Shown here in pieces: positions 5,091 through 52,043 of a stretch of DNA of 64,000 nucleotides. The DNA comes from Mytilus edulis. Lineage: Eukaryota. Within the stretch, counting starts at the first letter, position 1, and every line of letters begins with the position of its first letter. Position numbers and translations under genes: made by a program. The stretch covers positions 55,118,001 to 55,182,000 of the forward strand of contig NC_092347.1 of assembly GCF_963676685.1 (NCBI RefSeq), in the 5' to 3' direction. A model generated the notes under the pieces. The model had not been told where the DNA came from. It saw only the letters and a list, made by a program, of their open reading frames with translations, and did not search any database.

Positions 5091-5466
5091 CAATATACAG
5101 CTCCTTACTTATTTGGGTATTCATACATCCCTGTTCGTCTTTTTTGTAAGTTTGAGCGATCTTACCAATATAGCACGTTTACACAGTATCTTTGATGAGA
5201 GGACAGATCCCTATTAGTTTTGTGGTACTTACTCCAGAAAGACTGAAATGTGTGCAGAATTAAAGGGGTTTCTGCATGCTTATTCAAATATATACTAGTA
5301 CTACATATGGGATTGCAACCTTTCATTGGAATATGATCGCATATATATATAATGGATTGCTGTTCCAATTGAACGGAACGTCCACCAGCAGTGGCATCGA
5401 CCCAGTGATGTTAAATAGACAAAAATGTATGCCAAGAAATTGTTTCCAGATGCTTAAACAAATACT

Positions 5467-10885: not shown

Positions 10886-13800
10886 ATAAGGGGTAAGGCA
10901 TTGTATGTAGTCGAACTGAAAGGGAAACATGGTAACAAACACAATAATATCTTTTGTTTGCTCGTTGTTGAAGGCCGTACCCATGGCTTTTTTTAATTTC
11001 TGTGCCATTTGGTCTCTTGATGAGAGTTGTCTCATTAGCTATCCTACCACATCTTTTTTTTTTTAATAAAGATACATTTAGACCAAAATAAAGTCAGTCA
11101 TGCTGACATTCACCTTGAAATGTAATAGCTCGTTTCTGCCTACTAGCAAACAATAAAAAGGGGTGCATGTGTCATTCAGCTGTCCACGTATTTTGGCTCC
11201 TGTTTCTGCTTGCGATCTGCCCAGCAGAGTCAAATACCCGAGTCATGATTTGCGAGGTAAGCCGACATAAAGTATTTGTAATACAGGATAGATAAACAGA
11301 TCTAGAAAGCTGATGAGTAAATGTTTTATACAGTTAATTATTTGGTGATAAACTCCCCGAGGATCTATGAAACATTAATGACGAATCGACGAGGGTTCTT
11401 ACTACTTGTTGTCAGGCCTTGGGCCGTTTGTCTGCTTTGGGATTGATTTTTTGCCGTGCAGTAACTATTCAATTATACGATTGTACAATTAATTCAATAG
11501 ATAGAATTTCATTTTATCATTGCTTATCAATTGTCGGCTAATGATAATTCTGTTTTGGTTTTATTCTTACAGTTTTAATGCATGGAAACGTCTTTTATTG
11601 CTAGATAATGAGAATAATTGAATAGAGAACGCTTTCGCGATGTCAATTAATTACTAAGGAACTTCTTGCATCGTAGAAGCGATATGAGCTTTAACCAGAA
11701 AAACGCTTCGGACGCAAACATTTATTTAACGTGTTTTCATATTGAGCATATATAAACCGCTAAATTTGAAGTGAGTTTACTGTGTGGAAAAGGGAGAAAT
11801 ATCTATTTAGACACTACAGTTTTTTTTTTTATCAAAATAAAACTGATTTAAAAATTATATTTCTTTATCTGAAGGGTCAATGCGGTTTGATTTCATCATT
11901 GTTGGAAAATTTATCAAATCATCATTTATGAAAATTTATGTTGACCAGGCAATAGCTAGCTATATATACAGATTTGCAAATACTGTACTCAAGTTGTCAT
12001 TTAGACATTATTTGGTATGAATAGAGCCATTCATACAAGAAGAAAAAAATATGTCGACTGAACATGTCACTACGTTAATATGATACAGTCATTCTATCCC
12101 ATGATTACATTTATTTTTAATAGGTTCAATTCCAAATATCCCAAGTTCTTTTATCATCAAAAATGTTACTTTTAGCCCATGAGTATTATTTATCTGTAGA
12201 CTGGCATCTGCTAATGACATATCAAAAAGCGTCACCCGTCGTCATTTTAGGAAATAAATTCATAACGATGCAGTGTTGTCCTAATTTATGAGTTTGACTG
12301 TCTGTCCCTCTGGTATCTTTCGTCCCTCGTTTGTCATAAAAGGTCAATTTGAGATGAAAGTGGAGACCGTTCCTTTTATCGTGTCTGGTACATCTTAATG
12401 GTCTTATTTTGACGTGTGACCGAATTTCTCCTGAGACTCGTGTAATATATTTATCTTTGGATCTATTAGATATGCGTTCCAATGCATATTGCATAATTGA
12501 CAAATTTTGATACATTTAGGAGAAGCTAACGAGGTTAAGATTCGTATTAATAAATTATTCATCTTGGTTGGATTTTTCATCTATAATTAAATATATCTGA
12601 GGTTCTCTTTACATAAATGCATTGCTTGAGATAGTATTTTTGATGTTATGGTTTATTCACATTATATCAATACCCAGTACGTTCCTAAACTGTACAGCCA
12701 AAACTGCCAATGGTCAACTGTGGGAGTTGCATGTTTATATTTATATACATTGTAAACTATTATAAAATTTATTAACAAACAAAAAAGTTCAAACTGAATG
12801 TATCATTCAAATACTTTCCGGGACTGACAGTTGTCTAAGACTAGTAATGGTACCTTCCCTCTAGATGTATTGGGAAAAGTCGGTCATCAGCAGTAGCTAA
12901 CTGATATGATAATTCAATTGTAACAAACACGTATCAACTCCGTTATAACTTTCATTGCATATGGCACGTGTATCTTGAATAAACCTCACCAGGAACGAAC
13001 GCTTCAGCGGAAAGTTATTGGGAGGCAAATATCATATATATCAGTATAGCCAATACCGCATTCACAGAAAGAGTTATCTCTGTGGTCTAAGCACAAATAA
13101 TTCATTATTAATTGACTGAACATTTAATAAACATGTATTATGTATAAATCATGGCAATGTCAATGAACTGACTACTAGAAGGATTGTACCACCAGTCAAA
13201 GTTAGTTCACCAACTGCGGTACCAACCTATTTTTAATTGTCAAGTATTTATAAACACGCTTGATATTGATTTCTGAGAAGTGACCAGTTTTATAACATAG
13301 ATACTAAAATTTTCGGTGAACATAATACCATTGTATACATATTGTACATGCTCTATAAAGTTCAATATTACAACCATCATGTAATAGTATGTTTGTGCAT
13401 AACCAATGTTTATTGTCTTAATGGTATCAATTCTGTAATTTTGAACCAATAAAATATCTTATCTCATCTTGTAATAACCACCGATATTGGGTAACTTACT
13501 GGACCAGATTGATTTTAATGTGTTGACAAGTTGAATAGACATCTAGGACAGCAAGTCTAAGGTCAAAAAAGACAGAACAAAAAGGTTACAATTCCGTTTT
13601 GCGATAGTTTCTCCTTGATTATAATAGGAGAAATGTTTGTTATCGGTGTCATCGAACGGATATACAAAAGAACTTAGTGTATGATATGGGACGAATAACT
13701 GGATACATCATTGATGAAACTATCCTAAAACTCCTGTCTATACATGGACTAGTCTTTAATAATAAGCGAACCGGTTTAACCCCGCCCAGTCAAGTGAAAT

Positions 13801-17520: not shown

Positions 17521-18572
17521 ACAGGTGTGTTCCAGATATTTCATAAACGGTTAAATGATGATGGGTCTACCTTCCAAAACACATGAAGTCGGACCAGATA
17601 TAGAGAACGTCGTTTGGCTCGAATTTTACTTTTCTGTGGACTGGTTTATTAGTTGCTTTTTTTTTTATACCATAGTGTTGTTTGTCCTTCTTGTCCCAAT
17701 AGGGTTTTGTTTTCCTTGGTATCTTATTCCTTTGTATATACTTAATCTTTGTATTTGAATTATATTTTTTTCATAATTGAAACGATTTTGCCCCAGGATT
17801 TTGCGGATCAATACAGTGATATATATATATACAGATCCTACGTTTGATCAGAAAATCGATATATTTCGAATAGACAACCGGAAGTCGTTGAGTTTGAACA
17901 AATGTGACAGACAGCTGATTGATAAAAAGTCACGAATGTCTTATTCTACGAATGGGTTTTGAAGTTATGACGGATGTATTATCTAAATGAAAACCTTGGC
18001 ACAAATTTATAAATGCAGACATTGTCAATGTAATTATGAAAGTAAACACCAAATTATTAATTGCCATGTAGAAAATGTCAAAACTATGTGAAAATAAATA
18101 TTGGTTCGCGTGCTTTTATATGATACAATATTGCAGTCAATATTTTCAACTTGTTCATGGTGACCATTTGGCTTTTGGTGATATTAATTTATTATATAAA
18201 TTGTTTGTTTTAATTGTTTATTATGATGGGGGAAAAAAGAAGATACAAATTAAAGTTGCTTGTAAAAAAACCTTTGATCTTAAACAAAATACCATAACTT
18301 AGAAAAATGAATAAACTTTAAGATGTTTTGCATCAATTGTATTAGTCTAGGATATGAGTTGTTTTACACAATAATGCTAAAATAAATTGTATTGGTTGCT
18401 TGGCATATAATATAATGCCTTGCATAGGAAAATCAAGAGGTGTTGTTAATAACAGGGGAAAACGATTGAATCTAACAACTTTAAACAAAATAAAATAACG
18501 CTTTAGCAACGGTAGACGCTAATGCTCTTCAACTTCGTACTTTATTTGGCTTTTTTAACATTTTTTTTATTA

Positions 18573-18617
18573 GAGCGTCACTGATGAGTCTTTTTTAGAC
18601 GAAACGCGCGTCTGGCG
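18573..18617 (+). ncRNA. minimal type I hammerhead ribozyme
   Basis: GAGCGTCA-CTGATGA-GTCT(TTTTT)AGAC-GAAA-CGCGCG-TC-TGGCG. Intact CUGANGA/GAAA core; stem I CGUCA/UGGCG; palindromic stem III ACGCGCGU; predicted cleavage after GUC (18612). Confidence 0.85.
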
Positions 18618-19071
18618 TAGATATAAGATTTCAATCCTGGTATCTATGATGAGTTTATTTACAACCACTGGGTCGATGCCACTGCAGGTGGAGTTTTAAT
18701 TCCCCCGAGGCCAAGGTTTCACCAGCCAAATAGTCAGCACTTCTGTGTTGACTTAAGTTATCATTGATATGTTCATAATTATGAATTTACTGTTGAAAAA
18801 ACTTTGAATTTTTGAAATACTAGGGCTTTTCTACCTCAGGAATAAATTATCTTAGCTGTATTTGTCAAAACTTTTAGGAATATTTGTCCTCGATGCTCTT
18901 CAACTTCGTACTTTATTTGGCCGTTTTACATTTTTTGATTCGAGCGTCACTGACGAGTCTGACTACTGTGCTGGTGATACCCTCGGGGAATTAAGACTCC
19001 ACCAGCAGTGCCATCGACCCAGTGGTTATAAAAAAACTCATCATAGATACCAGGAATAAATTTTGTTTTTA

Positions 19072-19115
19072 CGCCAGACGCGCGTTTCGTCTACAAAAGA
19101 CTCATCAGTGACGCT
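19072..19115 (-). ncRNA. minimal type I hammerhead ribozyme (antisense to host gene)
   Basis: The reverse complement reads AGCGTCA-CTGATGA-GTCT(TTTGT)AGAC-GAAA-CGCGCG-TC-TGGCG; core intact. Confidence 0.85.
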
Positions 19116-20904
19116 AGAATAAAAACAAAATAAAAAAGGCCAAATAAATTACGATGTCACCATGAATGAAATTTTGAAATAAATTTTAATTTCAGAATGA
19201 CATGAGGTTGCTGTTAGCTGATCAAAATAACGTATTATAATGAAACATACATATTATGCAACTATTAGTTGACCTATCTAAGCTTGGATTATTTCACTTA
19301 ACTCACTAATGATGAATACCGTAGACCTATGGCTGCAGCTTGTTTATGTAAACAAGTATAACAAGCTTATTGGTTCAGGGGTTGAAGTCATAAAACTTTG
19401 CTCAGTGCTCGGAGCACAAAAATCATGCTCGAAACACGAAATCCAGCATTTTGATTGGTTGATTCTTGAGTCTGAGTACAAAAATCGTGCTCGAAAGTGT
19501 TATGACCGCAAGGCCAGGACAACTCCGTCTTACTTTTATTTACTCACAGGGACCATTATATTAACGAATTCGTCTTTCCTCTTTAGATCAAATGACTAAA
19601 TCATCAAATAAAAAAAGCATAGTTGATATGTATGAGCTATGCACTGAAGTATTTACATAAATTATGTGACGAAACACCATAATATTTAGAGGTCACATAA
19701 AAAAAACCCATGATGCTTAGGTGTTATACATACAAAACACTGTATTCGTTCACTGGAGACATTAGAAGTTTTGCTTTAATAGGCGAATGCTGTCTTGACG
19801 CTAATTATCGTTTCTTGCACTTAACAAAGGACAGTTCTTGAAACATTAAACATATGGTTTCACCATTTTTTCTGTCGAGTTAACATTTCTTATCAAATAA
19901 AAAGTTGCCAATTATTCTTAGACAAAGTAATGACTAGATTCCTATAAATAACAGACATTCACAAAGAATGCAATTATTTTATTTTGAAATATTTTTTATG
20001 TAAAATAACGTTGCAAACTTTGACTCTTCTGTCATTTTTTTTAAAGATTAGTTTGCAGTGTCTTAGTCTTTAAAATTTGTAATGCCATGGATCATTTACC
20101 GGAAATAGTCTGGATTTTAGTGATTGATATTCTTAAAGTTCTATCATAATTAGTCTAGTTCTATGTCACCGTTCTATGTACACTGCAATAGCAAAATCAA
20201 ACATCATTTAGTAAATTTGAGTCTGTTTTTACAATTTACAGTGCGTAAAGTTACTGATGAAATGATGAAACATGTATTTAGCTTAGCTGTCAATTGTCGA
20301 TTTTCTATTCATACTTTATTTTGATCTCTGATGACAATTTGATGCTTTAATTTTAAAATAAATTGAATACGCCAAAGTTAGGGTGAAATCTACATGAAAC
20401 ATATAGCGTAATGGTTTGAAGATATCAAGAGGACTTTAATATAAACAAGACTTGATAGGACAATACTCAGTACTTTTGTAAAATATATAGATTAACCGGC
20501 ATAAACCTTACAAGCATAAGGTGTAATCAGATGCTCCGGTAGGGTTGGGTACACTTGGTACTACTAGATTTGTTAATATTCGATATAAGTTTATGAAAGC
20601 CGATCATGTCAAAAACCCGATACATTTAACGCGATAAAATCACATTTAACGCGATAAATTCAGTTTTAACGCGTTTATATAATTTTTAACGCGATTTAAG
20701 CACAAAACTACAAAAAATGACCGAAAATACTTTCTTCTTTCGCCATAACAACGTTTTAAGGCGTCAGATTTTACTCGAAAATTACTAAATGAAATGGCCA
20801 CATGTGTCATAACTTTGTCAATTAACGCAATAAAGTTTATTAATTTTCAGCACATTTTTGTTATCATCGTCATTAATTATTTATCGCATTAAAATAAATA
20901 TTAA

Positions 20905-21220
20905 CGCGTAAAATGAAGGTTTAACGCGTTAAATGAAGGTTTAATGTGATAAAAGAGGGTATAACGCGTTAAAAGAAGGTTACCGCGTAAAAAGATAAGA
21001 AAAATACAACTTTAACGCGTGACAATAATTTTTAACGCGTTAAATGTATCTTTTTCGCGTTAAATGCAACTTTAACGCGTTAAATGCAACTTTAACGCGT
21101 TAAATGCAACTTTAACGCATTAAATGCAACTTTAACGCGTTAAAAGCGTTAAAAGCATTTTTAACGCGTTAAATGCATCTTTAACGCGTTAAATGCAACT
21201 TTAACGCGTTAAATGAATCT
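20905..21220. repeat. 20-bp minisatellite (TTTAACGCGTTAAATGCAAC)n
   Basis: Regular 20-nt period, clearest at 21031-21220. Most units carry the 14-bp palindrome TTTAACGCGTTAAA. Confidence 0.9.
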
Positions 21221-21635
21221 TTTAATTTAATTTCATTTAAGATTACTTTTCATTTGTATATATATGGACTGATCATGTTAATTAAAAGTCCATCTAGATT
21301 TACATTTGTCAACTTGTCTTTACGCTTTGTCTTAAATAAATTTTGTTTATATGTCAGGTTTGTCAGATACTTTACTTTTTTGCGTCTTTTGATGCCTGTA
21401 TCTAACATAAGGGTTTACCATAAACTTTGGTAGTTTGACGTATACTTACTTAAGTCTCTACAAGTGAAGTTTTTTTTTCTGTAGATGGTGTAAACATGAC
21501 ATATCTTTACTATACCTTTACTACATTTTGTACATCTATCAACCATACCTCTGTTAAACATTACAATCGGATATTGTTACACCGCTGTCAGTCAGATTAC
21601 CGAGGCATTTTTTGTTTTTCATTCGAGCGTCATTC

Positions 21636-21680
21636 GAGCGTCATTAATGAGTCTTTTGTAGACGAAACGCTCGTCTGGCG
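21636..21680 (+). ncRNA. degenerate hammerhead ribozyme remnant
   Basis: GAGCGTCA-TTAATGA-GTCTTTTGTAGAC-GAAA-CGCTCG-TC-TGGCG. The core CUGAUGA is mutated to UUAAUGA and the stem III palindrome is broken, so it is likely inactive. Confidence 0.65.
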
Positions 21681-23324
21681 CAAATACAAAATTTCGATCC
21701 TGGTATCTATTACGAATTAATCAGCTAGCAATCGCGTGTGAATTGAGAACATGTTCAAAACAACAGGCTATTAAGAGCATGCATCGAGCATCTAGTAAAC
21801 CATGCCCTATATTAATAAAATGAATCTGTTATTAATGCCCTACCTGTAAAGCTGAAATAATCTCTATGTCCGTCCGTTTCTCTGCCCGTTATTAGTCCTG
21901 AAATTTGTTCAAGGTTATGATTGTCTTTCTGATATTGTTTGATTGTAACCCCATTGTTTTATTTTGTATTTACATTGAGTGATAGATCAAACTTATTCGT
22001 GAAGTGATATGTCATTTGATTGAGTTAAGCCATTTCAGTTGATATTTTAAAGTGTGTCTTTCAACGTTGTGATATAACACTATTGTTTCAAGTTGGATTA
22101 AGGTTGGTGCCTATTAAAACGTTTCAACCCGCTGCATTTGTCCTAAGTCAGGTACCTGGTACCGTGGTTGTCGTTTGTTGATGTGCTTCATAAGTGTTTC
22201 TCTTTTTTTTATAGGTTAGACGTTGGCTTTTCTGTTTGAATGGTTTTACACTTATCTGTTTTGGAACCCTTTATACCTTGCTGATCAGTGTGAGCCAAGG
22301 TTACACGTTGAAGGCTGTAATTCATTCCCGGGTGTGGTAAAATGTTATCGTCTTCATTGGTCATCTTCATGTGTTTGTTGTGGTATGTTTTCATTTGCAG
22401 CACTTGTTTTTGATAGTAAATCGCGCAAAGCGATGCATTCAGAGTCCATGTTGTTCAAGATAACTGTTACAAATAGGACATTTGAGTTTGTATGGTTTTC
22501 AGTTAACACACAGTGTTTGCTATTTTGAAATCTGGTTAGTTAAAGAGAAAGGTTTAATCGTGAGAGGAAGACGCCATGTCATATCTTCCGTATTCTCCTC
22601 GTCTGTAATGTCCAGGACACCACGATACTACAAAAAATGCGAACAGATCATAGTAGTATTTTGTTAGTAACATTATTCCATAACTCCATCCATGATGTTT
22701 TAACGCGTTAAAGTAAGGTATTGTAGCAACGTAATTGTGTTGAATTTAACGCGTAAATGTGATTCATTATGACACATGTGGCCAGTGCGACGGGTATTTT
22801 ATCGCGATAAACGTCTTTTTTCCACCTGCGGGTTAAATCCCAAATTTGATAATTGTTAAAAGTTTAACGCGTTAAATATATTGATTTCTTTACAAGATTT
22901 TAACGCGTTAAAACTGTATTTATTATCGCGTTAAATGTTAACGCTTTATCGGGTTTTTGACATAATCGGCCTTTCATATAAGTTTTCCCCGAGAAAAAAA
23001 ATGACGTCCAAACAAATACAACCAAAAACGTGCAAACACATCGTACAGGCACAAAATGTATCGGAACAACTTTTTTATCATAACGTTCCTTGTGAAGGAT
23101 TAACATGAGAATTAAGAGCTCTAAAAGCAGTACCCTTTGCATCGTTCACCTTGACTAACCATCGAGGGTTTACATCATTGCTGGTAGACTGTTAGACTTC
23201 GATGGTCTCATTGGCAATTTTTCAGTGAATAAATTGATGTAATTTATTGAATTGTGAGATTTCTAAAAAAAAGAAGTTTAAAAGTATTTTTCACAAACTT
23301 AAACTTTAACATATCTTGCACTAT

Positions 23325-23935
23325 ACTGCCTTAGCTCATGTTCTTCTCATATATGTTATGATGGTATGATACTAAACCCCTAACGGGAAGGATTGTGCCT
23401 GATGTTCATATGATGAAATCATAATCTTTCAGTCAGTTTAATTGAAATCTGCAGCTGGCATGTCAGTTAACTGCTAGTAGTCTGTTGTTATTTATGTATT
23501 ATTGTCATTTTGTTTATTTTCTTTGGTTACATCTTCTGACATCAGACTCGGACTTCTCTTGAACTGAATTTCAATGTGCGTATTGTTATGCGTTTACTTT
23601 TCTACATTGGTTAGAGGTATAGGGGGAGGGTTGAGATCTCACAAACATGTTTAACCCCGCCGCATTTTTGCGCCTGTCCCAAGTCAGGAGCCTCTGGCCT
23701 TTGTTAGTCTTGTATTATTTTAATTTTAGTTTCTTGTGTACAATTTGGAAATTAGTATGGCGTTCATTATCACTGGACTAGTATATATTTGTTTAGGGGC
23801 CAGCTGAAGGACGACTCCGGGTGCGGGAATTTCTCGCTACATTGAAGACCTGTTGGTGACCCTCTGCTGTTGTTTTTTATTTGGTCGGGTTGTTGTCTCT
23901 TTGACACATTCCCCATTGCCATTCTCAATTTTATT
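23325..23935. repeat. dispersed repeat family ending ...GGTTGTTGTCTCTTTGACACATTCCCCATT.CCATTCTCAATTTTA
   Basis: Shorter copies at about 33990-34105, 34265-34320 and 37620-37960. Confidence 0.7.
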
Positions 23936-24160
23936 TATCTTATTCATTCTGTGTGTATTTAAAGATCATTGACTTTCTCGTTTTTTGAATTCACAAAGAC
24001 CAAAATGAATGAAATGGTACACTTTATCCTTTTCCTAATAAACAAAAAAGTTTTGAAAACAAAAATATTGCCATTAACATATTGTGCATCTAATAATTTA
24101 ATAACTGATTCTTCAATTTAGAAGTCACATACAATGTCTGCGTACCTTTTATAAAATTTA

Positions 24161-24549
24161 TAAAATTATAATCCTGGTACTTTTGATAACTATTTACACC
24201 ACTGGGTCGATGCCACTGCTGGTGGATATTTCGTCCCCGAGGGTATCAACAGCCCAGTAGTCAGCACTTCAGTGATGACATGAATATCAATTATATGGTC
24301 ATTTTTATAAATTTTCTGTCTACAAAACTTTGAATGTTTCGAAAAACTAGGGATTTTCTTACTCCAGGAGTAGATTACCTTAGCCTTATTTGGCACAACT
24401 TTTTGGTATTTTGGGTCCTCAATGCTCTTCAACTTTGTATTTGTTTGGCTTTTTTACTATTTTGATCTGAGCGTCACTGATGAGTCTTATGTAGACGAAA
24501 CGCGCGTCTGGCGTATAAAGTTATAATCCTGGTACTTTTGATAGCTATT
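24161..24549 (+). mobile_element. retrozyme-type repeat locus B: one 355-nt unit with terminal redundancy
   Basis: A ~34-nt direct repeat TAAA.TTATAATCCTGGTACTTTTGATA.CTATT occurs at 24161 and 24516 (period 355). Contains an intact hammerhead. Confidence 0.8.
24469..24513 (+). ncRNA. minimal type I hammerhead ribozyme
   Basis: GAGCGTCA-CTGATGA-GTCT(TATGT)AGAC-GAAA-CGCGCG-TC-TGGCG. Intact core; predicted cleavage after 24508. Confidence 0.85.
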
Positions 24550-25001
24550 ATAAGAGTTTTTAGTAAGACTTTTTGGAAATAAACATTCATTATCTGTTTT
24601 TAGAATTGAATTCTATTTCATTTCAAGTCGTATCGAAAAAAAGCAGTACTGTTACACAGAGGAAAGTCCTATAAAAGAAAGGTGAAAGGTACCAAAGGGT
24701 CATTCTTACTTATAAGCCGAAAATAAACTGTCAACGTCATAACCAAAAAAGAAAAGACAAACAGTACCCAAACACAACATGAAAAGTAAAGACTTATATA
24801 TCAACAGTTACACAAACCCCACCAGAATCTGGTTTTGGTTTTGTGTTTTTCGGAATAGTAAGCAGATTCTGCTTCACCTGTGACGACCGTCTTGTTGCTT
24901 ATATAAGTACAATCCCGGTGACAAGTCTAATTTGAATGGTCAAAATCAGGGAAAATATACATTTGTAAACTCGTTTATAGTTTATTTTCATTTCATTACA
25001 G

Positions 25002-25304
25002 ATACTGTTTTAGGACCAGACATTAACATTGCGCGTGAAAGTGTGCAAGTGCAAATAGGACGCAAAAAATTTCTAATCGGTGAATGCCACGTGCAAGGAG
25101 CTGCGCCATTAAACATAACTTGGATGAAAAGTGGAAAACTAATAATTGAAAATGAAAAATTCACTTTGGTTAAGATTATAACAGAACAAAATACAAATAC
25201 TCGTCAGCTGTGGATAAGAGAAATGGCGTTAGAAGATTATGGACAATATACTTGCTCCGCCACAAATTTGTACGGCACGAAGAAGAAAAATGTTTTTGTT
25301 AAAC
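25002..25304 (+). CDS. exon 2: immunoglobulin I-set domain
   Basis: TTACAG| acceptor and C|GTAAGT donor, phase 1-1, 303 nt. Encodes PDI...ECHVQGAAPLNITWMK...LWIREMALEDYGQYTCSATNLYG, with the canonical Ig Cys, Trp and DxGxYxC motif. Confidence 0.9.
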
Positions 25305-25955
25305 GTAAGTATTAAAATTACTTCGAGTATTGCCAAAAAATATTAGAAATAAATGTTTTCCAAATCGTCCCTTTAAATAAATTGAACGTCAATATTACTT
25401 GCAATTTAAATAATCCTAATAAAAGAACCTGAAATTGAGAAAAAAAATATACATGCTGGAATTTTGAAAATGAAACTTTGATGAACGGAAGTTCCGAACT
25501 GCTTTATCAAATTTTTATGAAATTTTCCAATCTGGAAAAGAAGCAGTATTGCTTTTATACTGCTACAATTCCTCTTTCGCAGATTTGGGAGATATCTTAA
25601 AAATGATGTCCTGAAGTATAAGGTACTTATTTTTTGTTATATAAATGGTATTTACATTTAATGTGTTAAATTAAATTTACATTTAATGTGAAAATTAAAT
25701 TCATATTTAATGTGTAAAATTAAATTTACATTTAATGTGTTGGTAAGACACAATTATTTGTTTATTAAGCATTAGATAGTAGTGTAAAAAGTAAACTTTT
25801 AAACTTTAAAGCAATTGCTCGTTTAACTGTATCACTGATTGGGACGAATTGCTTTATTTGGGCTCTTCCTTTTACACTCAGTAATTTATGTAATTCTACC
25901 TCTGTCAACCAGTACAAATACACGAGTTTCGACAATGGTGTATAATAGTGTCGTC

Positions 25956-26166
25956 TCGAAAAACTAAGGATTTTCTTATCCCAGGAGAAGATTACCTTAG
26001 CCGTAGTTGGTACAAATTTTTGGAATTTTTGGTCCTCAATGCTCTTCAACTTTGTACTTGTTTGGCTTTTTAACTGTTTTGATATGAGCGTCACTGATAA
26101 GTCTTATGTAGACGAAACGCGCGTCTGGCGTATTAAATTATAATTCTGGTACATTTGATAACCATT
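25956..26166 (+). mobile_element. retrozyme-type repeat locus C (5'-truncated unit)
   Basis: Aligns closely to 24339-24549. Confidence 0.8.
26086..26130 (+). ncRNA. hammerhead ribozyme with G8-to-A core substitution
   Basis: GAGCGTCA-CTGATAA-GTCTTATGTAGAC-GAAA-CGCGCG-TC-TGGCG. Stems and GUC site are intact; the core reads CUGAUAA rather than CUGAUGA. Confidence 0.7.
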
Positions 26167-29127
26167 TTAGATCATTTTATATCTCATATCATTATCGAAA
26201 GTTTGAAAGTAACTAAGATTACATACTAGTAAATGGCAAGTCTGAGTTTGGTTGCCTCTATTTCTTATCATTGGGGTAATGGGGACGATCTCCGACTGTC
26301 AAGAATAAAAAGGTTTTTATAAGCAAGCAGAGTAAATCGTCTGCTCCCACGTCAGCCAAAAATTTTTGCTATTCTGAATGCTTTTAATAACCAGGACCTT
26401 GTACATAGGTACGTTTGAAAGACTAACTGACTGCTAGTCTTCTTTAAATTTCAGTTGGATGCGTTTAATTCAGTATTAGTAAAAGTGGGAGAAAATATCT
26501 ACAGATTGCTTTTTGTTGTTAATAATTATTTATGATTTGACTCTTCAATTCAAAGATTATCTTCTTCTGACTGCAGTTAGTTTAAGAGTATATATTTCTT
26601 TATCGTACTTCGGATTATATGCAATTTCAACATCTTTCCATGGAAGTAAAAATTTGATACAAAAAAGCGGTTATGTTTATAAACGTATCAATAGTTAAAA
26701 GCTCTTTAAAAGATATATACCAAGGTAATACTAATACATAAACACTGAGGAAACCGTATGAACTCAAAATCTTTGATCAACACTGCCTCCATGTTTCTAC
26801 TCTCGACTGTTCTTATTCCACAGGCAATAAGGATGGTCATAGATACTTACTTTGTGGTTTCTACGTTTAAAATACCAGACCGACACATCTATAGAGCAGT
26901 TATTCTGCATGAAATGTAGACTACATCTCTACTGGTTGTATCCCTGTTCAAATCCCTTAGAAAATGCCTTCGTCTTGTCTGGAACAACAAGATGTTCAAG
27001 GACAATCAATTCCTCGTTGACCTATCATCTGCACTTTTCCATTTTGAAGCTTTTGAAGTTCGTTACTTTTTGTAACGATTCTTCGATCAAGGATGTTGTC
27101 CTATATACCTTTAAGCTCAGACATAATTGATCTCCGGAAAAAATCAGAGACGATTTTCTCATTATATTTTTATTTATGGGTCTGTAAAATTCACTTTTAG
27201 ATGTAGTTCTCTTTGGACGACTTCATATTCGTTTATTTCAGCTAAATCTTCACCAACATTACATTCAAGATTTATCTTCACCGAAATTGGATTTGGATTC
27301 CAGCTTTAAAAAAAATCGTAATCCAATGCTTCAATCTTTATCCCCTCGACTTCAGTTTTGACTACACAGGGAAAATATTATGAGGGGCTTTCTTCTGTAC
27401 AAATCAAATATTGAACACTGCTGCATCCATTCTAGATCGGGATGCTGGAGGGACAATTCTTCACAGGTGTCTGGTAACCAAATTGTATAAAACCACACAT
27501 CTATTTTGATAGTATTTTATCGACACAGCAGTAGTTCTGGTAACCGATGACACCACAGTTGTCAATTATCTGAAGAATCAGAGGGGAACTCATTGTTACT
27601 CCTTGTAGAAAATAGCCAGAAACAGTGTATAAAGTTCTTGTTACCTCAACTACTAAAAGCTATAGATCGTCAATTCTAGAAATTTAAGTGCATGTATTTC
27701 GAGCGGGTCAGACTGTATATATGATAAGTTTATATCTCTTTATTCTAGCATATCTACCGTGAAAAGGTGATATGCATGGCGCTGAATCCTCCTTGGGGTT
27801 TAAATTGAGTTCTGTCAGCCCTTCATTCTACTAATTTTGAATCAGCAGATATCGTATTTCTATCTTAAACATGCTGTGTTTTATTAGTTTTAGCTTCTGT
27901 TTGATGGTCTTGAAATTCCTACGGTTTTAGTTTTAATAGGACTGGACTTTATTTAAGCATGCCTCTTTAGAAGAATTTTTGTCCACAGAGTCCTCTTGTA
28001 TAATGAGAACTCATCTACTAGTATTTCACATTACTAACCCTCTATGTTTTCCGATGCATGAATTGTTTCTCTCTGAGGCCTATAGGTAAATCGTGGTTAC
28101 AGCGCAGTAACGGCACAAAGGGTAACTGTGTATCCCCCTTTTCTGTGTCTTTGGAGAAATGCAATGAGGGAGGTTCGAGATTACTTATGCTCTAAACCGG
28201 TTATATATTTCACTTTCAGTTCGACGAATCCGTTTGTTGTTATGACGCAATATGATGATAACACTCTTAATTTATGATGGCAGGCATAAATTAAAAAGAA
28301 AAACACTTCAGTTTACTGTAAATATGAATACATTTATAAACGAACTATGACGAACCTATATATACTTGAGAAATGAATAGACTAGAAACAAAAAAGAGTA
28401 ACGAACAATATTTTGTATGTCTATAGATCCTCAAAGTTTATTAATAGTGCAGGAATGCTGAGCATTTATTTAAACATTGTATTGTTATGTCTGATATTAC
28501 AAATACAGGGATACAAATGTTTAGATACTATTTCAACCATAACAAAAACCGATCTTCATATTTTACAGAAAAAAAACCGAATAGTTGAAGTGTTTTTATC
28601 TCCTATACATTTCTAGGAATATGATTAGTTAAAATCAACCGCGTGGAAACCATGTATATTTAATATTTGATTAGAAAGCGGCCTTACTTCACTGGTTAGT
28701 AGTGGTGTTACGTCCCTTAATGAAAACAACACGATCTTAAGGATAAACAGACGAAAAAATTGATAAACTATTGAAACAATTTGTTACACAGTGCTCTTCG
28801 CTATCACCCCATGAATTTACTGACTACAATATTTATCGTCTTAGATTACTAGCACACTATGTAACTAAAAATATTTTGTCAGAAAATTACTAATAAATGA
28901 GCAGATGTGGCTCAACTAGACCGAAAGAATATGTACTCTTCCTGTGTTACTTAGGAACAATTTGTATTAAGCTATATCACTATGTATTACAGTTTTACCT
29001 GGCTGCTCAAACAATAACTACGTTGAAGACATCAAATTAATATTTGAAATACTTGAAAATATACGTCAAATAAACAAATGTGTGTTAAAGTTAAATCGTC
29101 AATAACGTGTTTTCTCTCAATTTACAG

Positions 29128-29237
29128 GGGCAGTTGTACGTGAAACAAGACAGGAATCTCAGTCTAATTGTGCAGATAAAAAATATTTTAATATAACTGT
29201 ATTTTTAACTTATTTTGCTGTTATTGTGCATCTTTGA
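29128..29237 (+). CDS. exon 3: stalk and probable GPI-anchor signal
   Basis: TTTCTCTCAATTTACAG| acceptor in phase 1. Encodes RAVVRETRQESQSNCADKKYFNITVFLTYFAVIVHL*: small-residue omega region SNCA, a spacer, a hydrophobic C-terminus, and no cytoplasmic tail. Confidence 0.75.
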
Positions 29238-30435
29238 TTTTTATAATATTTTGAAACAATTGTTGGTGTAAGAAAGACGGGTGACTACATTGATGGAGTC
29301 TAAATTATATATAAAGGTTAATATATTCTCCTGATACCCTCTAAGGCCTTATGTTGTCAGAATGTTGCAGAAACCTTCGGAATTCTTTCACCTTCTTTTA
29401 GTGACAATTTCAATTTCAATTGAACCAACCTTGTGCTTGTCATCCTGATGGACTTGCTTTACTGAACTTACAAAATAGATGCATTGTTTAATTTGTGTTC
29501 GTCCTACATATGTATCGACTGTTTGTCAATAGACGTGAAACCAACTCAACAAACGAATTATTTTTGGTACACAAAAATTGTTAACTAATTCTTATCTTTT
29601 TCGATTTTTTTTAGTAGGGTTTCCTCCATAAAATAATTCAATAATTATCAAAGGTACTAGGATTATAATTTAATACGTTTCTGTTGTTTAGGTATATAAC
29701 ACCATTACACGGTTAGACGCGTCCATAAAGTGATCGAAAAGAAATATTCCCTTTAATTTGACAGCTGTAGGAAATTAGCCCTGCGTTTCATTGCATAACA
29801 ATTTTTCTAAGTCATAAACACAAAGCTTTTGTGTTTAAAGCACCATTTTTGGGGGTGTTTCTGTAATACGTTTTTATTCTTGAGGAGTTTGAAATGTTTT
29901 TTTGAAAACAGGACTAAAGCTTGTTAACAAGGGGAAACGGCGGGAGAATTTGATTGATTAACTTTCAGTGATGGTTATTATCTTATATGCAATGAAATGT
30001 TGTGTAAATATTGTTAGTTGTACTGGGTAGGATAAAGCTTTTCTCTGCCAAGTATTTCTTTATTTAAAACAAAGATATATTCTGCACAATATTTTTTACA
30101 AATTTAACAAAGACCAGTAAGAGAAATCAGTGGTGGTATTACTCAATTACGAATTAGTGATATATCATATAACATCATAATTTTAGCGGTAACAATAACG
30201 ATTTCAAATCGACAATTTATGTTTCAAATGATCTTTGGTACATACCAATTTACTTTGAATTTCAACATGACTTGTAATGTTTGTGGTTGCTGTTTTGTAA
30301 ATAGCTGTGTTTATGAAAATATTTATCATTCATTTGTATAGTAAATCATTTTCTTTACTTTCTATAAACCATATATATAATTATTTGCATCATTTTTATT
30401 TGTCAATGTTATTTACATGGTCATGTATATGTTTG

Positions 30436-31085: not shown

Positions 31086-33390
31086 TAAGTACTGATGTAA
31101 AATTGCGCGTTTGAAATTCGCACAGGTAGACATGAAATAATTTTGTCGTTCAAAGTATGATGGGATACATAAATACAGTCACGTAAAATAGACAAAAAAC
31201 AGATAATAAGTAAAATAATAGTGTGGTTTAAAGTATGACGCGTAAGTTGACTTACATTAACTGTTTCATTAGTTCGAGTAACAAACCAAGGCAACCTTAT
31301 CTGGCTGTAGGTAAAATATCAGTCCGTACCATTCCTAATCCACGTGTCCTTTACGATATCTACGTCAAAGAAAACTTAAGCACCTGAGATCACCCCTAGT
31401 TTTTGGTGGGGTTCGTAATGTTTATTCTTTACTTTTCTATGTTGTGTCATGTGTACTATTGGTTTTCTGTTTGTCTTTTTCATTTTAGCCATGGCGTTGT
31501 CAGTTTGTTTTAGATTTATGAGTTTGACTGTCCCTTTGGTATCTTTCGTCCCTCTTTTAAGCAAAAGCTGTTGACACTTAGATGGTAAAATATTTCGGAA
31601 CTTGCATGCTTCTGTCCGAAGTAAATTCAATAAAGATGGAGATGCTCTCCACTTTCAGTTCTCATACAGTTGAAATTATACTTAACCAAAACTAGAAATT
31701 ACTGAATGTAGAACATAGTCAGTTTATGAAAATAACTTATCAAAGATACTAGCCTTACAAGTTTAGTATACTATATATGCGCTAAATCTACACAATGTTC
31801 ATCAGTGATGCTAAAATTCAAATAATTGGGATGCTAAATAAAAAAAAATTATGTAAAAGTGTTCAAAATCCGGCAAAGGTTGCCTTTGACTGTGGTAAAA
31901 TAAACAAAACAAAATAAATGAAAAAGCGAGTACTGCGCAGTTTAGTTATGAAATAGCGAAAACAATGCCGACACAATATTAATCTACAAGAGAATGAAAG
32001 GATTAGTAATAAAATTTGGACTATCAAAATATGTTTCTTTATCCATTCTAACAATAGATGTATGTCTAATGAAAGGTCATTGTTTTCCACACATATTTGC
32101 AATAATAGTATATGTGCTTCATGAGAATATATGTTGTTTGTTAATTTATTGTGTTCATATGCTACTTGATGTTGTGGTTGCTTGTCTTTTTGTGTTGATG
32201 CAAATATCAAATTCGATTTGTGTTTTCTTTTAAGGTTCATTTTCTTCAGATTGTCCTATTAGTCACGGTTGAAGTAGGATTTTCATTAAAGCAGAAGGGC
32301 ATACTGTTAGAAAAAAACCTCAGGTTCAAATAAAGGGTACAATAAAAAAAAACACCGACAGAAAAAAATACTGAAAACTCAAATCTTTGGCGATAAGGAG
32401 GATACGTTCGTATACCTATTCCTTTCCCAAGTATGAAGTGCTCCTTACTAGTAAGATGTATTTACAGAGCTAGTCATAAAACCAGGGTCAATCCACTTTT
32501 TTCTTCATAAGAACATGCCTGTACCAAGTCAGGAATTTGATAGTTGTTATCCATTCGTTTGATGTGTTTGAACTTTTGATTTTGCCATTTGATAAGGAAC
32601 TTGAATTTTCCTCGGAGTTCATTATTTTTGTGATTTTACTTTTTACAGAGTTTTCTTTAAAAGATAATCAGGATAATTGACGATTGGTGTCAATGTCAAT
32701 GAAACCTATTACACTTGTCGTACCATAAGATGCATCATTAGTCTTAAATGTATGTAACTGAAATCAGAAACAGAAGAATTCACAAAATAAAGTTACATTC
32801 TGTCAAACATAAACACGATAGAGTGATCTCTTAGCTTTGGACACTATGATGCTAATATGCACCAAAAGTAAACCAAGATACGTAATTACAATGATTCTGC
32901 AATCATGTTTTTTCAATACAAAATGAATTTCCATTGCAGAGAACTTGTTGCTTAACAAACATATCGTATTAACACAACGATCATGTTTACACAAACTAAT
33001 TAGCAAAGGCTTCAGATCACTAGAAGGCAAGGAAAAAGGATACAAAACCGATAAAATGTTTTAGCATGAAATGATAAATTGGCTGTCATTTAAGATAAAT
33101 GTGCTTAGTAATTTATTGGGTTTATGACTTGGATGGTCAGAACTATTCAAAATCAATGTCAAAATCAGTCGATATATATATGGTCAGCATATTTCTCAAA
33201 AATGGATTCCTGAGTATGTGATGTTAATTTGGAATCGAGAAAAGAGATTTCCTTTGAGTGCATTTACATGAAGGATTAAAATCCAAAAGTTGGTATAAAC
33301 GCAAATTTAAATACTCGATGAGTTTAAAAAAAACTGATTACACAGAAATTAAACAAATATTTCTCTTATATCAATAAATTCATAGACAAC

Positions 33391-42187: not shown

Positions 42188-43096
42188 CTATAATATATAA
42201 AAACAAAATGATAAAAAATTACCATTCATTTCATAAAGTCAGGTAAAACAATAACATATTTTTTTCTTTCACCCACCATGCTCAAATGCAAACCAGCCTT
42301 GGGTGTTGTTTATATAAACTTAAAACTAATTTTAAAAGTTGCCACTAAGATCAGATATGGTGAACGATAGCAGAAATTTGTTTCTGTTATAAAAATCTAG
42401 GATTTTAAAAATAGGAGTCAAGACGACTATGAAATAACCTAATTACACAAATTTCAAGGGTGGACAATTTAATATTAAATTTTCACTGCAGTTTTTATCA
42501 AAAAAGCTAACAGTATAAGATATAGTATGAACATATGATATGAACAGAGTCAGTGAATTGACAGTCTGTGCTAACTAGTTTTTAAATGATTCATTGATCA
42601 ATTGATTGTTGTTTGCTTAGTGTATAGTAAATGTTATATGCATTTTCAGACTGGGTGCTAATCAACAATACATTCTATCTGTAGTTTCTGCCAATTGGGT
42701 TCATTGAGATGAAGCCTTTATCACACATCTTTGGAAAAAACAGAGTCTTTTTAAATGATCATTTAATACATCAAACCTAGTAGACACACAGAGAGTGGTT
42801 CAAACTTATCACCTTATTTAAGACTGGAATAAAGAGAACATTTTCAAATTAATGGCATATGTTGTTACACTTTATAAGTTCAAGGTTTGCTGTATTGGCT
42901 ACGGGTCTCACGGCCAATACAGCTGACCGAGAATCTATACCAGTGCCAATACAGAAACAGCCAGTTTAAAACACTTTTATTAAAAAATACAACTTTTTCG
43001 ATACAGAATTGTTCTCTGAATGCTGTATTACATACATCAAATGTGAATAATGGGCCAATATTTCCAATATGCAATGGCAATGATGTGAATATAGGG

Positions 43097-43199
43097 CCAA
43101 TATTTCCAATATGGACTGGCAATGAATCCTGAATTACATGCACAATATATGTTTACATGTAATTCAGGGTTCATTGCCAGTCCATAATGGAAATATTGG
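43097..43199. repeat. long hairpin (about 44-nt arms, 15-nt loop)
   Basis: CCAATATTTCCAATATGGACTGGCAATGAATCCTGAATTACATG pairs with CATGTAATTCAGGGTTCATTGCCAGTCCATAATGGAAATATTGG. Confidence 0.85.
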
Positions 43200-43754
43200 A
43201 CCAGGGCCGAAAAGCAATATAGATCATGTGATTTATATAACTAGGACGACGTCACCATTAGACACATGCTGTTTTTGGTAGTATTAGGGCTGTTTTAATC
43301 ATATTATTTAATTATATATTATATAAAAGGTTTTGAGAAGTTTAAATAAATTTACATAATTTTGTGACCAGTCGGTATTCCATTTATTTATCATTACGTA
43401 TTACCAATGTTATTTCAACTGATCGGGCGGAGCTTATGTTTTCATTTGTATAAGTACAGCCTATTTGAAGATGTGTGTGATAAGACTGATTGCCGTTATA
43501 ATTATTACTGATTTCTAATCATCCATCAGTGTCATCAAGGGAATTTACAAAACAATGACTGGACACTTCATTGATGAGTTTATCCTAAAACACCTATCTA
43601 TAGATGGACTGGGTTATTGTGAGCGAATCGTTAAACTCCGCCCAGTCAAGTGAAATAAATCGAGTAATAGAATCAACATAAGTTTACAATAATTAAACAA
43701 TTGATGTTTTTTTTAAATTCTGAAGTCACATTAGCTTCTTTTCCAATGACTTAC

Positions 43755-49724: not shown

Positions 49725-50140
49725 CTATTAAAAACAATGATTACCGGCATAAATTATAGTTACATTTAATCCTTCATATGTTTCTAATTGTTAAATACTT
49801 CTGTACTAACCACTCACAATTGTTAAATATTCAAAGGAATCACCTTTACATTTGTATACACCTTTTTAAACAACAAAATCAAACTCACTTTTCATTAATG
49901 TTATACCTATACTATTGTAATTTTTTAGTGACAAGAGAAAATAACTCTATTCTTGAAACATTTGTGTGCAAAATTATTTTAGAAAAGGAACAATTTTTTT
50001 TTAAATATGCGCAAATTACTGTTTGTATTTTTAGATCCTTATCTAGCGCTCATAATGATTAAGAAAAGACATTCTTGCTTGAATAACTATTTGTTTGAAG
50101 CAAATCCTGTGTAAGTTTAATACTTTCAACAGCATACAGT

Positions 50141-50213
50141 ATGTTATGGCAAACTTAAAGCAACATTTGAAAGTATGATACTTTCAAATGTTGCTTTAAG
50201 TTTGCCATAACAT
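50141..50213. repeat. perfect 73-nt palindrome (36-bp arms, 1-nt spacer)
   Basis: ATGTTATGGCAAACTTAAAGCAACATTTGAAAGTAT-G-ATACTTTCAAATGTTGCTTTAAGTTTGCCATAACAT. Confidence 0.95.
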
Positions 50214-50269
50214 TGATGTATGTCGACCTCAAATTTTTCTTATTTATTTACTAAATAATATAAAAATAC

Positions 50270-51936: not shown

Positions 51937-52043
51937 CTTGTTTGATGTTGCTGAAGTCAGGAGTGAGTAGTAAAATAAAGCTCTGTCTTGAATATCCATG
52001 TCGTCATAGGACATCATCATATTAAACAGAATATCACCAATGT
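51937..52043 (-). CDS. AP5B1: AP5B1 coding exon
   Basis: DIGDILFNMMMSYDDMDIQDRALFYYSLLTSATSNK carries the adaptin trunk-end motif (cf. AP5B1 EDPDGRDHARLYYILL); phase 1-0. Confidence 0.9.

Follow-up and report, generated by a model that had tools for sequence, protein, structure and literature searches.

The hammerhead repeats in a 64,000-nucleotide stretch of Mytilus edulis DNA (hereafter the window) are very probably truncated insertion products of a 355-365 nt hammerhead unit, which was likely copied by the endonuclease/reverse transcriptase of Naiad elements. With considerable confidence we infer that the Naiad reverse transcriptase binds a hairpin common to both elements, primes just upstream of it and copies round the circular RNA of the retrozyme.

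Retrozyme copies in the window

Six hammerhead motifs had been proposed for the window in an earlier note made from the letters alone, and all six are present: full cores lie at 18573 (plus strand), 19116-19071 (minus strand) and 24469 (plus strand), whereas the motif at 18942 ends after helix II, that at 26086 carries G8A and that at 21636 carries C3U and G5A. The Infernal-type check envisaged there gave matches of RF00163 to four of the motifs, yet each stays just below the gathering score of 34 (32.5, 32.5 and 33.0 bits for the intact cores and 25.9 bits for the fourth match). The proposed unit lengths hold, with 369 nt from 18573 to 18942 (A type) and 355 nt from 24159 to 24514 (B type). 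The description of the hammerheads as minimal was too strong: their helix I comprises 6 bp, and a helix III of 2 bp with a GCGC loop is present, whereas the term is reserved for motifs without helix III (PMC7761336).

Locus A consists of two copies. The first, an A-type copy of 1.2 units (18521..18960, plus strand), runs from about unit position +275 and stops inside its second hammerhead, so that the 3' end is missing; its closest relatives are 89% identical, which marks it as old. It contains an intact type I hammerhead (18575..18618; cleavage after 18612; 32.5 bits) and a damaged Naiad-type hairpin, with approximate limits of 18664..18730 taken from its alignment row. The second A-type copy (18959..19157, minus strand) extends from about +289 across the cleavage site and the hairpin, with an intact type I hammerhead (19071..19114; cleavage after 19077; 32.5 bits) and a Naiad-type hairpin at 18963..19033 that is 80% identical to the Naiad family N3 over 71 nt. 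The two copies meet at a 2-nt microhomology, tail to tail; they are 85% alike and both lack the 3' end of the family. Locus A is therefore not an inverted insertion of the PLE type, as those are arranged head to head with the 3' ends outside; two old insertions and a deletion would explain it better.

A further A-type copy, 5'-truncated and with a dead core, lies at 21632..21721 (plus strand) and ends at +46. Locus B (24159..24549, plus strand) is a B-type copy of one full turn, from +6 round to +41, with a single hammerhead and 96% identity to an array unit. Its Naiad-type hairpin (24198..24260), with helices P1, P2 and P3, matches the beginning of N3 with 87% identity over 63 nt, its hammerhead (24471..24514; 33.0 bits) has an intact type I core with cleavage after 24508, and the 41-nt stretch 24509..24549 leads from the cleavage site to the fixed 3' end of B-type insertions. 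The cleavage triplets ending at 18612, 19077 (minus strand) and 24508 were read directly from the sequence. Locus C (25956..26167, plus strand) is a 5'-truncated B-type copy from +186 to +42, with its G8A hammerhead at 26088-26131. The outlying fragments were also recovered, namely a 38-nt B-type stub (29640..29677, minus strand; +4 to +41), an old degenerate retrozyme 3' piece (31720..31848, minus strand; 67-69%) and a partial hairpin (5373..5420, minus strand; +37 to +81). The latter is of retrozyme or Naiad-type origin, and since it comprises part of the hairpin only, a Naiad-type element rather than a retrozyme may be its source.

Activity of the copies and their host gene

In the plus-strand copy of locus A one hammerhead is full and the other truncated, the minus-strand copy and locus B have one each, and the cores of locus C and of the copy at 21636 are dead. 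A circle can be released only from a copy with two working hammerheads, and the window holds no such copy; its loci are insertion products rather than circle sources. The assignment to non-LTR retrozymes with two subfamilies thus stands, but not the view of these loci as circle-producing copies. Self-cleavage and circular RNA are described for the retrozymes of M. galloprovincialis in PMC7229834. Of 22,208 reads on a 20-kb stretch, 14,819 match it at no more than 90-95%, and the depth over the Ig exon was 0.03 in that run; the reads therefore come mostly from family copies elsewhere, and they show sense-biased family RNA only.

The host exon encodes an Ig I-set domain (25002..25304, plus strand; PF07679, E 1.6e-15) and is spanned by an RNA-type contig at 24999-25305. 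It joins in frame with the probable last coding exon (29128..29237, plus strand), at whose start (29128/29129) RNA-type contigs also begin. By our own reading the predicted C-terminus is hydrophobic and resembles a GPI signal; no homologue of the gene was found. A candidate signal-peptide exon at 11148-11256 was rejected, since its end is in phase 0, which precludes a direct junction with the phase-1 Ig exon. The 29640..29677 stub lies in a transcribed stretch about 400 nt past the stop codon, likely the 3'UTR. Of the intronic positions claimed earlier, that of locus C between the two exons is borne out, whereas locus A, the copy at 21636 and locus B are placed only upstream of the Ig acceptor; they are likely intronic, the exon before that acceptor not having been placed.

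The retrozyme family in the genome

The window repeats belong to the non-LTR retrozymes of Mytilus, the class of PMC7229834, their likeness to the published clones being judged by description. Exact hammerhead cores number 15,075 in the whole genome and 0 in the reversed control, which shows that the motifs do not arise by chance. A-type units elsewhere (n = 24) measure 347-373 nt with a mode of 365 nt, and in one C2 array of B-type length all 21 of 21 units measure 355 nt; both lie within the class limits of a non-LTR retrozyme (tandem units of 150-450 bp in many copies). Arrays hold up to 22 hammerheads, and in the four largest the core is intact in 21/21, 8/8, 7/7 and 6/6 units, each with a type I hammerhead that has a helix III. 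In two arrays 19/21 and 8/8 units are identical, with 8.9 differences between arrays, which favours the mechanism proposed below; several arrays are heterogeneous, with 3-11 differences within, which speaks against it. The repeats are low in GC and non-coding (the only frame over locus B is a chance antisense frame of 87 codons), their ends are unit overlaps and not LTRs, and PBS and PPT are absent as judged by eye. Two consecutive complete hammerheads, the criterion for an active copy in a 2026 preprint (10.64898/2026.07.22.740005), occur in arrays elsewhere and in 0 window copies. The annotation is corrected accordingly: most of the approximately 15,000 hammerheads are single and sit in insertion stubs, which are not circle sources.

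A fixed 3' end of insertions

The 3' end of insertions is fixed about 41 nt (B type) or 48 nt (A type) beyond the cleavage site: B insertions stop between +40 and +48 in 25 of 26 cases, and A insertions between +43 and +55 in 24 of 29 (5/29 off site). Among loci that had been fetched for other reasons, 13/19 3' ends are at the site and 6/19 are off it; the off-site ends count against the mechanism proposed below. The 5' ends are variable, 56 of them being spread across +5 to +350. Given the position of the 3' end 41-48 nt past the cleavage site, longer insertions require an RNA that spans the junction. Read in genome order along C1, 9/9 arrays have no hairpin 20-mer behind their last unit, while this 20-mer follows inner units in 13/14 cases and single hits in 3/41. 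Only this paired reading is used as evidence; the genome totals (3,319 for the 20-mer before the end, rarer than the 4,901 for the 20-mer after it) are uninformative or contrary, as they run opposite to the naive expectation and thereby against a Naiad helper, although the reversal may be due to variation among subfamilies in the 20-mer before the end.

Target-site duplications were not found, the longest shared flank words in 55 insertions equalling those of a shuffled-pair control, and no poly(A) was seen at retrozyme insertions; duplications of more than 4 bp are given as optional, "when present", in PMC7229834. Three of the 56 5' ends, and in addition the 29640 stub, fall at +4 to +6. Such ends would be expected if copying ran as far as a cleaved 5' end, but their frequency is not beyond chance.

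A hairpin common to retrozymes and Naiads

Three families with open frames of 1000-1053 codons and near-identical copies, N1-N3, are by their sequence features Naiads. PF01541 matches N1 at residues 179-269 of 1052 aa, thus N-terminally, and RVT_1 gives no match at E 0.01; all three families have a GIY-YIG motif at 135-179, YIDD at 844-898, and CX9CxxC, CxC, GPKF/GPKY and DKA, in keeping with the Naiad diagnostics (a Zn-finger lengthened in mussels, CxC, GxKF/Y and DKA) in PMC8557442. Their units measure about 4.3 kb (N1), 4.75 kb (N2) and 3.37 kb (N3) and occur with pLTRs and inverted copies; the same paper gives a body range of about 3.4-4.4 kb, which N2 slightly exceeds, together with partial tandems with a pLTR and 5' truncation. 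By eye, N1 matches Naiad_Mgal/Mcor at start and end. Rfam yielded 0 matches at E<=1 in N1-N3 (loci L134, L216 and L218), and so no canonical hammerhead; a decayed retrozyme core sits in the N2 3'UTR.

In the retrozyme unit, a 63-nt hairpin that is 87% identical (E 1e-17) to the first bases of the young N3 lies directly after the point where insertions end; in Naiad it stands just before the start codon. The local score to N3 is 86, compared with a shuffle maximum of 30 and 25-34 for the control set, which comprised five canonical PLE loci with C-terminal endonuclease and no LINE; the A-type match to N1 is hardly above shuffles (38 vs 35), which weighs against a Naiad helper. In an alignment of eight related sequences, from which N1 was left out because its extra inner hairpin was misaligned, 98.9% of the cells of 23 pairs are paired and 8 pairs have changed on both sides; 0/500 shuffles reach this value and slid controls give 34-51%. 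In the folded circle the hairpin (+48 to +107) is predicted to be the most stable domain, with pair probabilities of 0.89-1.0. Its core opens 12 of 54 published Naiad consensi. At E<=1, Rfam gave no match to the hairpin in the window, and among known RNA families (twister and others) just two chance matches (E 2-3.3, L218 7900-8700); the reading as a known structured RNA family was rejected.

All three Naiad families end in the same register, before the same covarying hairpin, and the retrozyme families share this distance from end to hairpin: for N1, 29 ends from 30 loci stop at the T-run ahead of it, as do 2 ends of N2 and 5 of N3, the N3 end survey being left out of the counts because the query flank made its table uninformative. 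The repeat at 23338-23935 was considered as a fourth Naiad end and rejected, as no junction to the hairpin was found.

The two elements also meet in the genome. A same-strand Naiad 3' end abuts 4 of 69 retrozyme 5' ends, with about 0.06 expected, and the controls gave 0 on the opposite strand and 0/67 at retrozyme 3' ends. The N1 3'UTR carries a 27-nt retrozyme end (24 filled and 23 empty repeat copies), and that of N2 holds a decayed 293-nt retrozyme copy ending at +41. The hairpin sequence is nearest to N3, while the junctions are with N1 and N2, which weighs against the proposed mechanism and leaves N1, N2 and N3 all as candidates for the working family.

Proposed mechanism and alternative explanations

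Tandem arrays elsewhere would be transcribed, cut by their hammerheads and ligated into circles, as is known from M. galloprovincialis (PMC7229834). The Naiad protein would bind the hairpin as on its own RNA and nick genomic DNA, and reverse transcription would start at a U-run that lies 0-6 nt upstream of the hairpin, as suggested by the fixed ends and the Poseidon precedent. After 41-48 nt copying would pass back over the cleavage/ligation junction, the circle being the likely template, and would halt at variable points without leaving a target duplication, both of which are observed. The expected products range from stubs through single turns, of which 24159-24549 is an example, to arrays of up to 22 units. 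Occasionally the enzyme may change template and continue on Naiad RNA from its own start point, and such a switch is the presumed cause of the joined Naiad 3' and retrozyme 5' ends. The hammerhead would thus serve circle making and the hairpin mobilisation. That Naiad mobilises the retrozyme in trans is indicated indirectly, by the 4/69 junctions and the captured pieces.

A Naiad helper could instead have copied an uncleaved linear multimer or read-through RNA, with arrays stemming from source arrays or unequal crossover. We consider this unlikely but deserving of weight, as junction-spanning RNA of any kind yields the same ends, the main substrate of Poseidon in vitro is uncleaved RNA (PMC11167929), the hammerhead of mussels cleaves slowly (about 0.1 per min) and some retrozyme arrays are heterogeneous; circles, however, account for 75-95% or more of the retrozyme RNA extracted from mussels (both values from PMC7229834), and arrays of identical units differ among themselves, yet keep the canonical 3' end and a truncated 5' end. 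The hairpin could also act at another step, as a Naiad-derived promoter, translation or packaging element, the fixed 3' end then reflecting endonuclease trimming of DNA. Its position immediately ahead of the Naiad start codon and the ascription of PLE tails to endonuclease-mediated resolution (Craig et al., PMC8557442) would suit this, but it is rendered rather improbable by the two-sided helix changes, which indicate a single-strand fold, by the constant end-hairpin distance in five families with different upstream sequences and by the coincidence of Poseidon ends with mapped initiation sites (PMC11167929).

Mobilisation by a hammerhead-bearing canonical PLE or LINE, with the hairpin as a relic of Naiad ancestry, is very unlikely: young PLEs with C-terminal endonuclease are abundant in the genome, Xenopus retrozymes match pLTRs of annotated PLEs (10.64898/2026.07.22.740005) and the N2 3'UTR segment is compatible with a retrozyme origin by deletion from Naiad, but five canonical PLE loci have no sequence in common with the retrozyme, and canonical PLEs were rejected as helpers on these five. 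Moreover, poly(A) and target duplication are both absent, young copies share the Naiad end register, young arrays keep the hairpin, and junctions with Naiad are in excess. Scarcely credible, finally, is the original proposal of a local cluster of active retrozymes giving 355/369-nt circles from a host intron, even though three cores in the window are intact and reads on its copies favour the hammerhead sense 3-4 to 1 under the usual library convention. Every window copy lacks a tandem pair of working hammerheads, and the word cluster was an overstatement: at a rough density, 3.5-4.4 pieces are expected per 64 kb against 7-8 in the window, and 13-39 stretches of 7.6 kb holding at least 5 pieces are expected genome-wide, so that such a density is expected by chance somewhere in the genome and a special local cluster was rejected.

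Relation to known systems and significance

The retrozymes of M. galloprovincialis (Cervera and de la Pena, 2020; PMC7229834) likewise have a type I hammerhead, two families, tandem units of 350-390 bp, thousands of copies, low GC and no LTR, PBS or PPT, and the match of N1 to Naiad_Mgal/Mcor extends the likeness to the hosts. PLEs are named there as candidates only, and the fixed 3' end, the hairpin and Naiad are absent from the results and discussion as available. N1-N3 agree with the Naiad clade (Craig et al., 2021; PMC8557442) in protein diagnostics, 5' truncation, partial tandems and the lack of a canonical hammerhead, whereas the retrozyme is non-coding and has a hammerhead in addition; the main text, as far as available, makes no mention of a "stem-loop" and gives non-autonomous partners for Chlamys only. 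A second "tail" end 30-40 nt further on was not seen among the N1 ends. For vertebrate retrozymes, units sharing sequence with PLE termini have been described and PLE enzymes proposed (Li, Clavereau and Pollet, bioRxiv 10.64898/2026.07.22.740005); in the available text the units are homologous to pLTRs of Xenopus PLEs from Repbase, Naiads appear in coral only, molluscs are not sampled, and a fixed end, cis-element or junction evidence does not occur, while the piece in common here is the 5' hairpin of a hammerhead-free clade. The retrozyme class and, from that preprint, the proposed retrozyme-PLE kinship were thus known before; what is new is the fixed 3' end together with the Naiad hairpin.

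The likeness to Poseidon, studied in Anolis (Frangieh et al., 2024; PMC11167929), is that an RNA-internal start upstream of a required region sets the genomic 3' end, that targets are AT-rich and that insertion does not need hammerhead cleavage. Poseidon differs in belonging to another clade and in initiating at two sites in an AC-rich stem-loop inside the ORF (PMC11167929). In the mussel case a single U-run precedes the ORF, and the passenger is circular and non-autonomous. In SINE-LINE pairs, a non-coding passenger copies an RNA signal that is recognised by the reverse transcriptase of its helper. Here, by contrast, the common signal lies at the 5' start of the helper, downstream of the priming point; it is consequently left out of the insertion 3' end, and circular or tandem RNA alone passes it on.

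The mover of animal retrozymes and the recognition of an endless circle have been left open since 2020, with papers guessing at hammerhead-bearing PLEs, and no published report of a Naiad partner, a hairpin or a fixed end for retrozymes was found in the literature. With a named clade, a 65-nt structure and a start site within a few bases, the question becomes a defined in vitro assay, as for Poseidon. We lean towards the broader reading that the hairpin is the reverse-transcriptase recruitment/initiation element of a wide Naiad subclade (bivalves, hemichordates and a fish), and that the retrozyme is a two-module parasite, combining a hammerhead for circle making with a captured hairpin through which an enzyme related to telomerase and lacking a hammerhead can roll round the circle and insert multimers. 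In the literature searched, the hairpin is the first candidate cis-acting RNA signal for Naiads, a clade that dominates bivalve genomes. If the broader reading is true, an animal retrozyme would for the first time have a named helper, signal and start site, and the 65-nt structure would be a portable handle by which any circular RNA might become a template for target-primed insertion.

Retrozyme copies in the window and in the genome

All six hammerhead motifs described in the earlier note were found at the positions it claimed, and its unit lengths were borne out for both retrozyme families, with 355 nt for the B type and 347-373 nt for the A type. The window copies include two tail-to-tail pieces at 18521-19157 (A), and the copies B (24159-24549) and C (25956-26167). 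When scanned with the type I hammerhead model (Rfam RF00163), the three intact motifs score 32.5-33.0 bits, below the gathering score of 34, and the G8A copy scores 25.9 bits. The fold is that of a type I hammerhead, with a helix I of 6 bp, a helix II of 3-4 bp and a helix III of 2 bp capped by GCGC; since helix III is present, the motif is not "minimal", as had been proposed, in the sense of the available text of PMC7761336.

Exact hammerhead cores number 15,075 in the 1.37-Gb genome versus 0 in the reversed control, and the window, at 55.1 Mb on chromosome C4, contains seven retrozyme pieces and one piece consisting only of the hairpin described below. None of the retrozyme pieces has a tandem pair of working hammerheads, and therefore none is able to release a monomer. 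Nor do they form a special local cluster, as the earlier note had suggested: at a rough density of 3.5-4.4 pieces per 64 kb, estimated from loci fetched for other reasons, 13-39 stretches of 7.6 kb with at least five pieces are expected genome-wide. The proposed intronic location holds for copy C, which lies between the Ig exon and the probable last exon of the host gene, joined in frame. For A, B and the piece at 21632-21721, all upstream of the Ig exon, it is likely, the preceding exon having been sought but not located. This Ig-domain gene (25002-25304 and 29128-29237, +) ends in a hydrophobic tail; a homologue search returned none, the best paralogue being 37% identical, and a signal-peptide-like exon at 11148-11256 (+) has a phase incompatible with the Ig exon.

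The repeats belong to a known class of retrozymes, likened here to the Mytilus galloprovincialis families by description. For that species, the available text of Cervera and de la Pena (PMC7229834) counts some 5000 type I hammerheads, which lie in 350-390 bp repeats and form two families; it further reports self-cleavage, ligation by RtcB and an abundance of circles, and proposes Penelope-like elements (PLEs) as candidate helpers, without evidence. In one RNA run, family reads were found in the hammerhead sense at 4.2:1 (bin with B) and 3.0:1 (bin with C) under the usual library convention. Identity of the reads on the stretch is mostly 90-95%, with the host exon silent in the same run, so that the reads derive mainly from other loci.

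A fixed 3' end

Counted from the hammerhead cleavage site, B insertions have their 3' end at +40 to +48 in 25 of 26 cases (mode +41) and A insertions at +43 to +55 in 24 of 29, one A pair being a duplicate of a single insertion; these loci were best matches, and the queries gave that end no advantage. The 5' ends (n=56) are spread over +5 to +350. Among loci fetched for their PLEs, the fixed-site end was seen in 18 of 26 matches uncut by a locus edge (three edge matches and four hairpin-only matches being left out), or in 13 of 19 once seven apparent Naiad-borne 3'UTR copies had been removed by eye, and two further matches end at +36 and +37. Along the first 37 Mb of chromosome C1, taken in genome order, the 20-mer following the fixed end is missing from the last unit in 9/9 arrays, and is present in 13/14 inner units and in 3/41 single matches. 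Genome totals run contrary to a fixed end (3,319 for the 20-mer before it versus 4,901 for the one after), which probably reflects subfamily differences in the upstream 20-mer. In the window, B stops at +41, C at +42, the piece at 21632-21721 at +46 and the stub at 29640 at +41.

Among 55 insertions, neither poly(A) nor target duplication above control was found. For any insertion longer than 41-48 nt, the template RNA must have spanned the cleavage junction. Within the two largest arrays, 19/21 and 8/8 units are identical, as against 8.9 differences between arrays, and smaller arrays show 0 to 11 differences within the array.

Naiads share the sequence that follows the fixed end

A GIY-YIG search revealed many young PLEs in the genome. 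Among 20 fetched regions and 30 short loci, a short stretch of the retrozyme recurs in a single element, one whose endonuclease is N-terminal. A protein search yielded three such families (N1-N3), 56-63% identical, with open frames of 1000-1053 codons and many near-identical copies. All three carry the Naiad diagnostics given in the available text of Craig et al. (PMC8557442), N1 matches Naiad_Mgal and Naiad_Mcor at its start and end, as judged by eye, which marks the host as a Mytilus-type mussel, and Rfam has no match in N1-N3. In each of them, the sequence that follows the retrozyme fixed end sits directly after the pLTR end, before the start codon. It is shared over 63 nt with N3 (87%, E 1e-17), 71 nt with N2 (70%) and 34 nt with N1 (82%); local scores against N3 are 86 and 78, with shuffle maxima of 30 and 31, and those against five C-terminal-endonuclease PLE loci are 25-34, the match of A to N1 being marginal. 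The Naiad ends are in the retrozyme register: the 29 N1 ends (30 loci), two N2 ends and five N3 ends examined stop at a T-run 0-6 nt upstream of the hairpin.

This hairpin lies directly after the retrozyme fixed end. An alignment of eight sequences (three retrozyme, N2, N3 and three other genomic copies without known parent; N1, with its extra inner hairpin, was excluded) supports one long hairpin of 23 pairs, with 98.9% of cells paired against 34-51% in slid controls and eight pairs changed on both sides; 0/500 shuffles reached as high. As the rows are related and few, this counts as support and not as a probability. Inner loops near CTGCTGG and CCCGAG are almost invariant. In the predicted fold of the B circle, the hairpin helices have pair probabilities of 0.89-1.0 and the hammerhead is unformed. 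An exact text search of the available Craig supplement places the hairpin core at the start, or close to it, in 12 of 54 listed Naiad consensi (eight from bivalves, three from hemichordates and one from a fish), a floor since such a search misses variants, and the outer helices of these starts change in a compensating fashion, as judged by eye. No Rfam family matches the hairpin. Hairpin copies lacking an upstream hammerhead, at L026:1258-1322 (-), L053:684-748 (-), L220:5410-5474 (+) and window 5373-5420 (-), could belong to additional Naiad families or to passengers of another kind.

Junctions and exchanged pieces

A Naiad 3' end in the same orientation immediately precedes 4 of 69 retrozyme 5' junctions (two N1, two N2), with about 0.06 expected from local density, whereas the opposite strand gives 0 and retrozyme 3' junctions give 0/67. 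A template switch within one reaction explains this excess, and so would cleavage by the Naiad endonuclease at the element's own ends; either route needs Naiad protein. Retrozyme sequence is also found inside the Naiads. In the N1 3'UTR, one of the copies of an internal repeat includes 27 nt of retrozyme end, up to +41 (24 instances filled, 23 empty), and the N2 3'UTR contains a decayed retrozyme running from +105 round to +41 (71% over 293 nt) that lacks exactly the hairpin and would fit either a captured copy or a remnant of how the retrozyme arose.

One Naiad lineage, represented at L216 (N2), L156, L160, L168, L215, L217, L225 and L226, has in its 3'UTR a decayed retrozyme whose hammerhead is dead; this copy is partly duplicated as 240-nt repeats, and its pieces may be mistaken for retrozymes. 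Several 5' truncations (L028, L047, L075, L080) fall close to the same TTACCTTAG word at about +222 to +231 of the unit, two of them at Naiad junctions, and the word is a possible stop or switch hotspot. About 15 separate N1-N3-like 3'-end pieces occur at 10581-35098 of the window. One of them, at 31379-31559, is a 96% N3 end, and another (24671-24948, -) lies in the interval from copy B to the Ig exon.

Other features

An abundant 5'-truncated repeat at 23338-23935 (+) has a T-rich 3' end that is fixed at 23933-23935 across about 14 copies and coincides with loose RNA read ends; it also has a weak SECIS_1 match at 23348-23412 (32.3 bits, gathering 35). The repeat resembles the 3' terminus of a further PLE-type family, and it showed no junction to the hairpin; selenoprotein Naiads are known in clams. 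Two blocks of 20-nt tandem repeats around the palindrome AACGCGTT (20622-21222 and 22680-22950) seem to flank an insert of 2.3 kb, which may be a foldback or MITE-like element. Near-perfect AT-rich inverted repeats at 50135-50220 and 43093-43203 match miRNA models far below gathering scores, and an AP5B1-like gene exon lies at 51904-52173 (-; PF21588, E 4e-10). Elsewhere in the genome, young C-terminal-endonuclease PLEs occur at L116, L120, L127, L128 and L219, the first three also having a second frame of 260-425 codons, upstream and overlapping, and many full-length copies across several PLE clades appear recent.

Naiads as probable helpers of the mussel retrozymes

Established here are the insertion anatomy, the fixed ends, the common register, the common covarying fold and the junction excess, and published work on a close relative has demonstrated cleavage and circles; that Naiads are the helper of the mussel retrozymes is, in our view, very likely. 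A 2026 preprint links Xenopus retrozymes to PLE pLTRs (10.64898/2026.07.22.740005); in its available text, no mollusc is sampled and Naiads are found in a coral only. In the literature searched, as far as its text was available and with subscription papers and Repbase Reports mostly outside it, a Naiad helper, the hairpin and a fixed retrozyme end are unreported. The element is known; the proposed helper-and-signal relationship is new.

By analogy with Poseidon, in which, according to the available text of PMC11167929, reverse transcription begins inside the RNA and sets the genomic end, the Naiad protein would bind the hairpin and prime upstream of it. The template may be a circle or, less probably, a linear multimer, and the hairpin may act in initiation or, less probably, in another role. 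With priming upstream of the hairpin, the signal falls on the downstream side of the priming point and is consequently absent from the 3' end of every insertion, so that it would be passed on only by a circle or tandem. This need would explain why the passenger has retained a hammerhead, which its Naiad helper is without.
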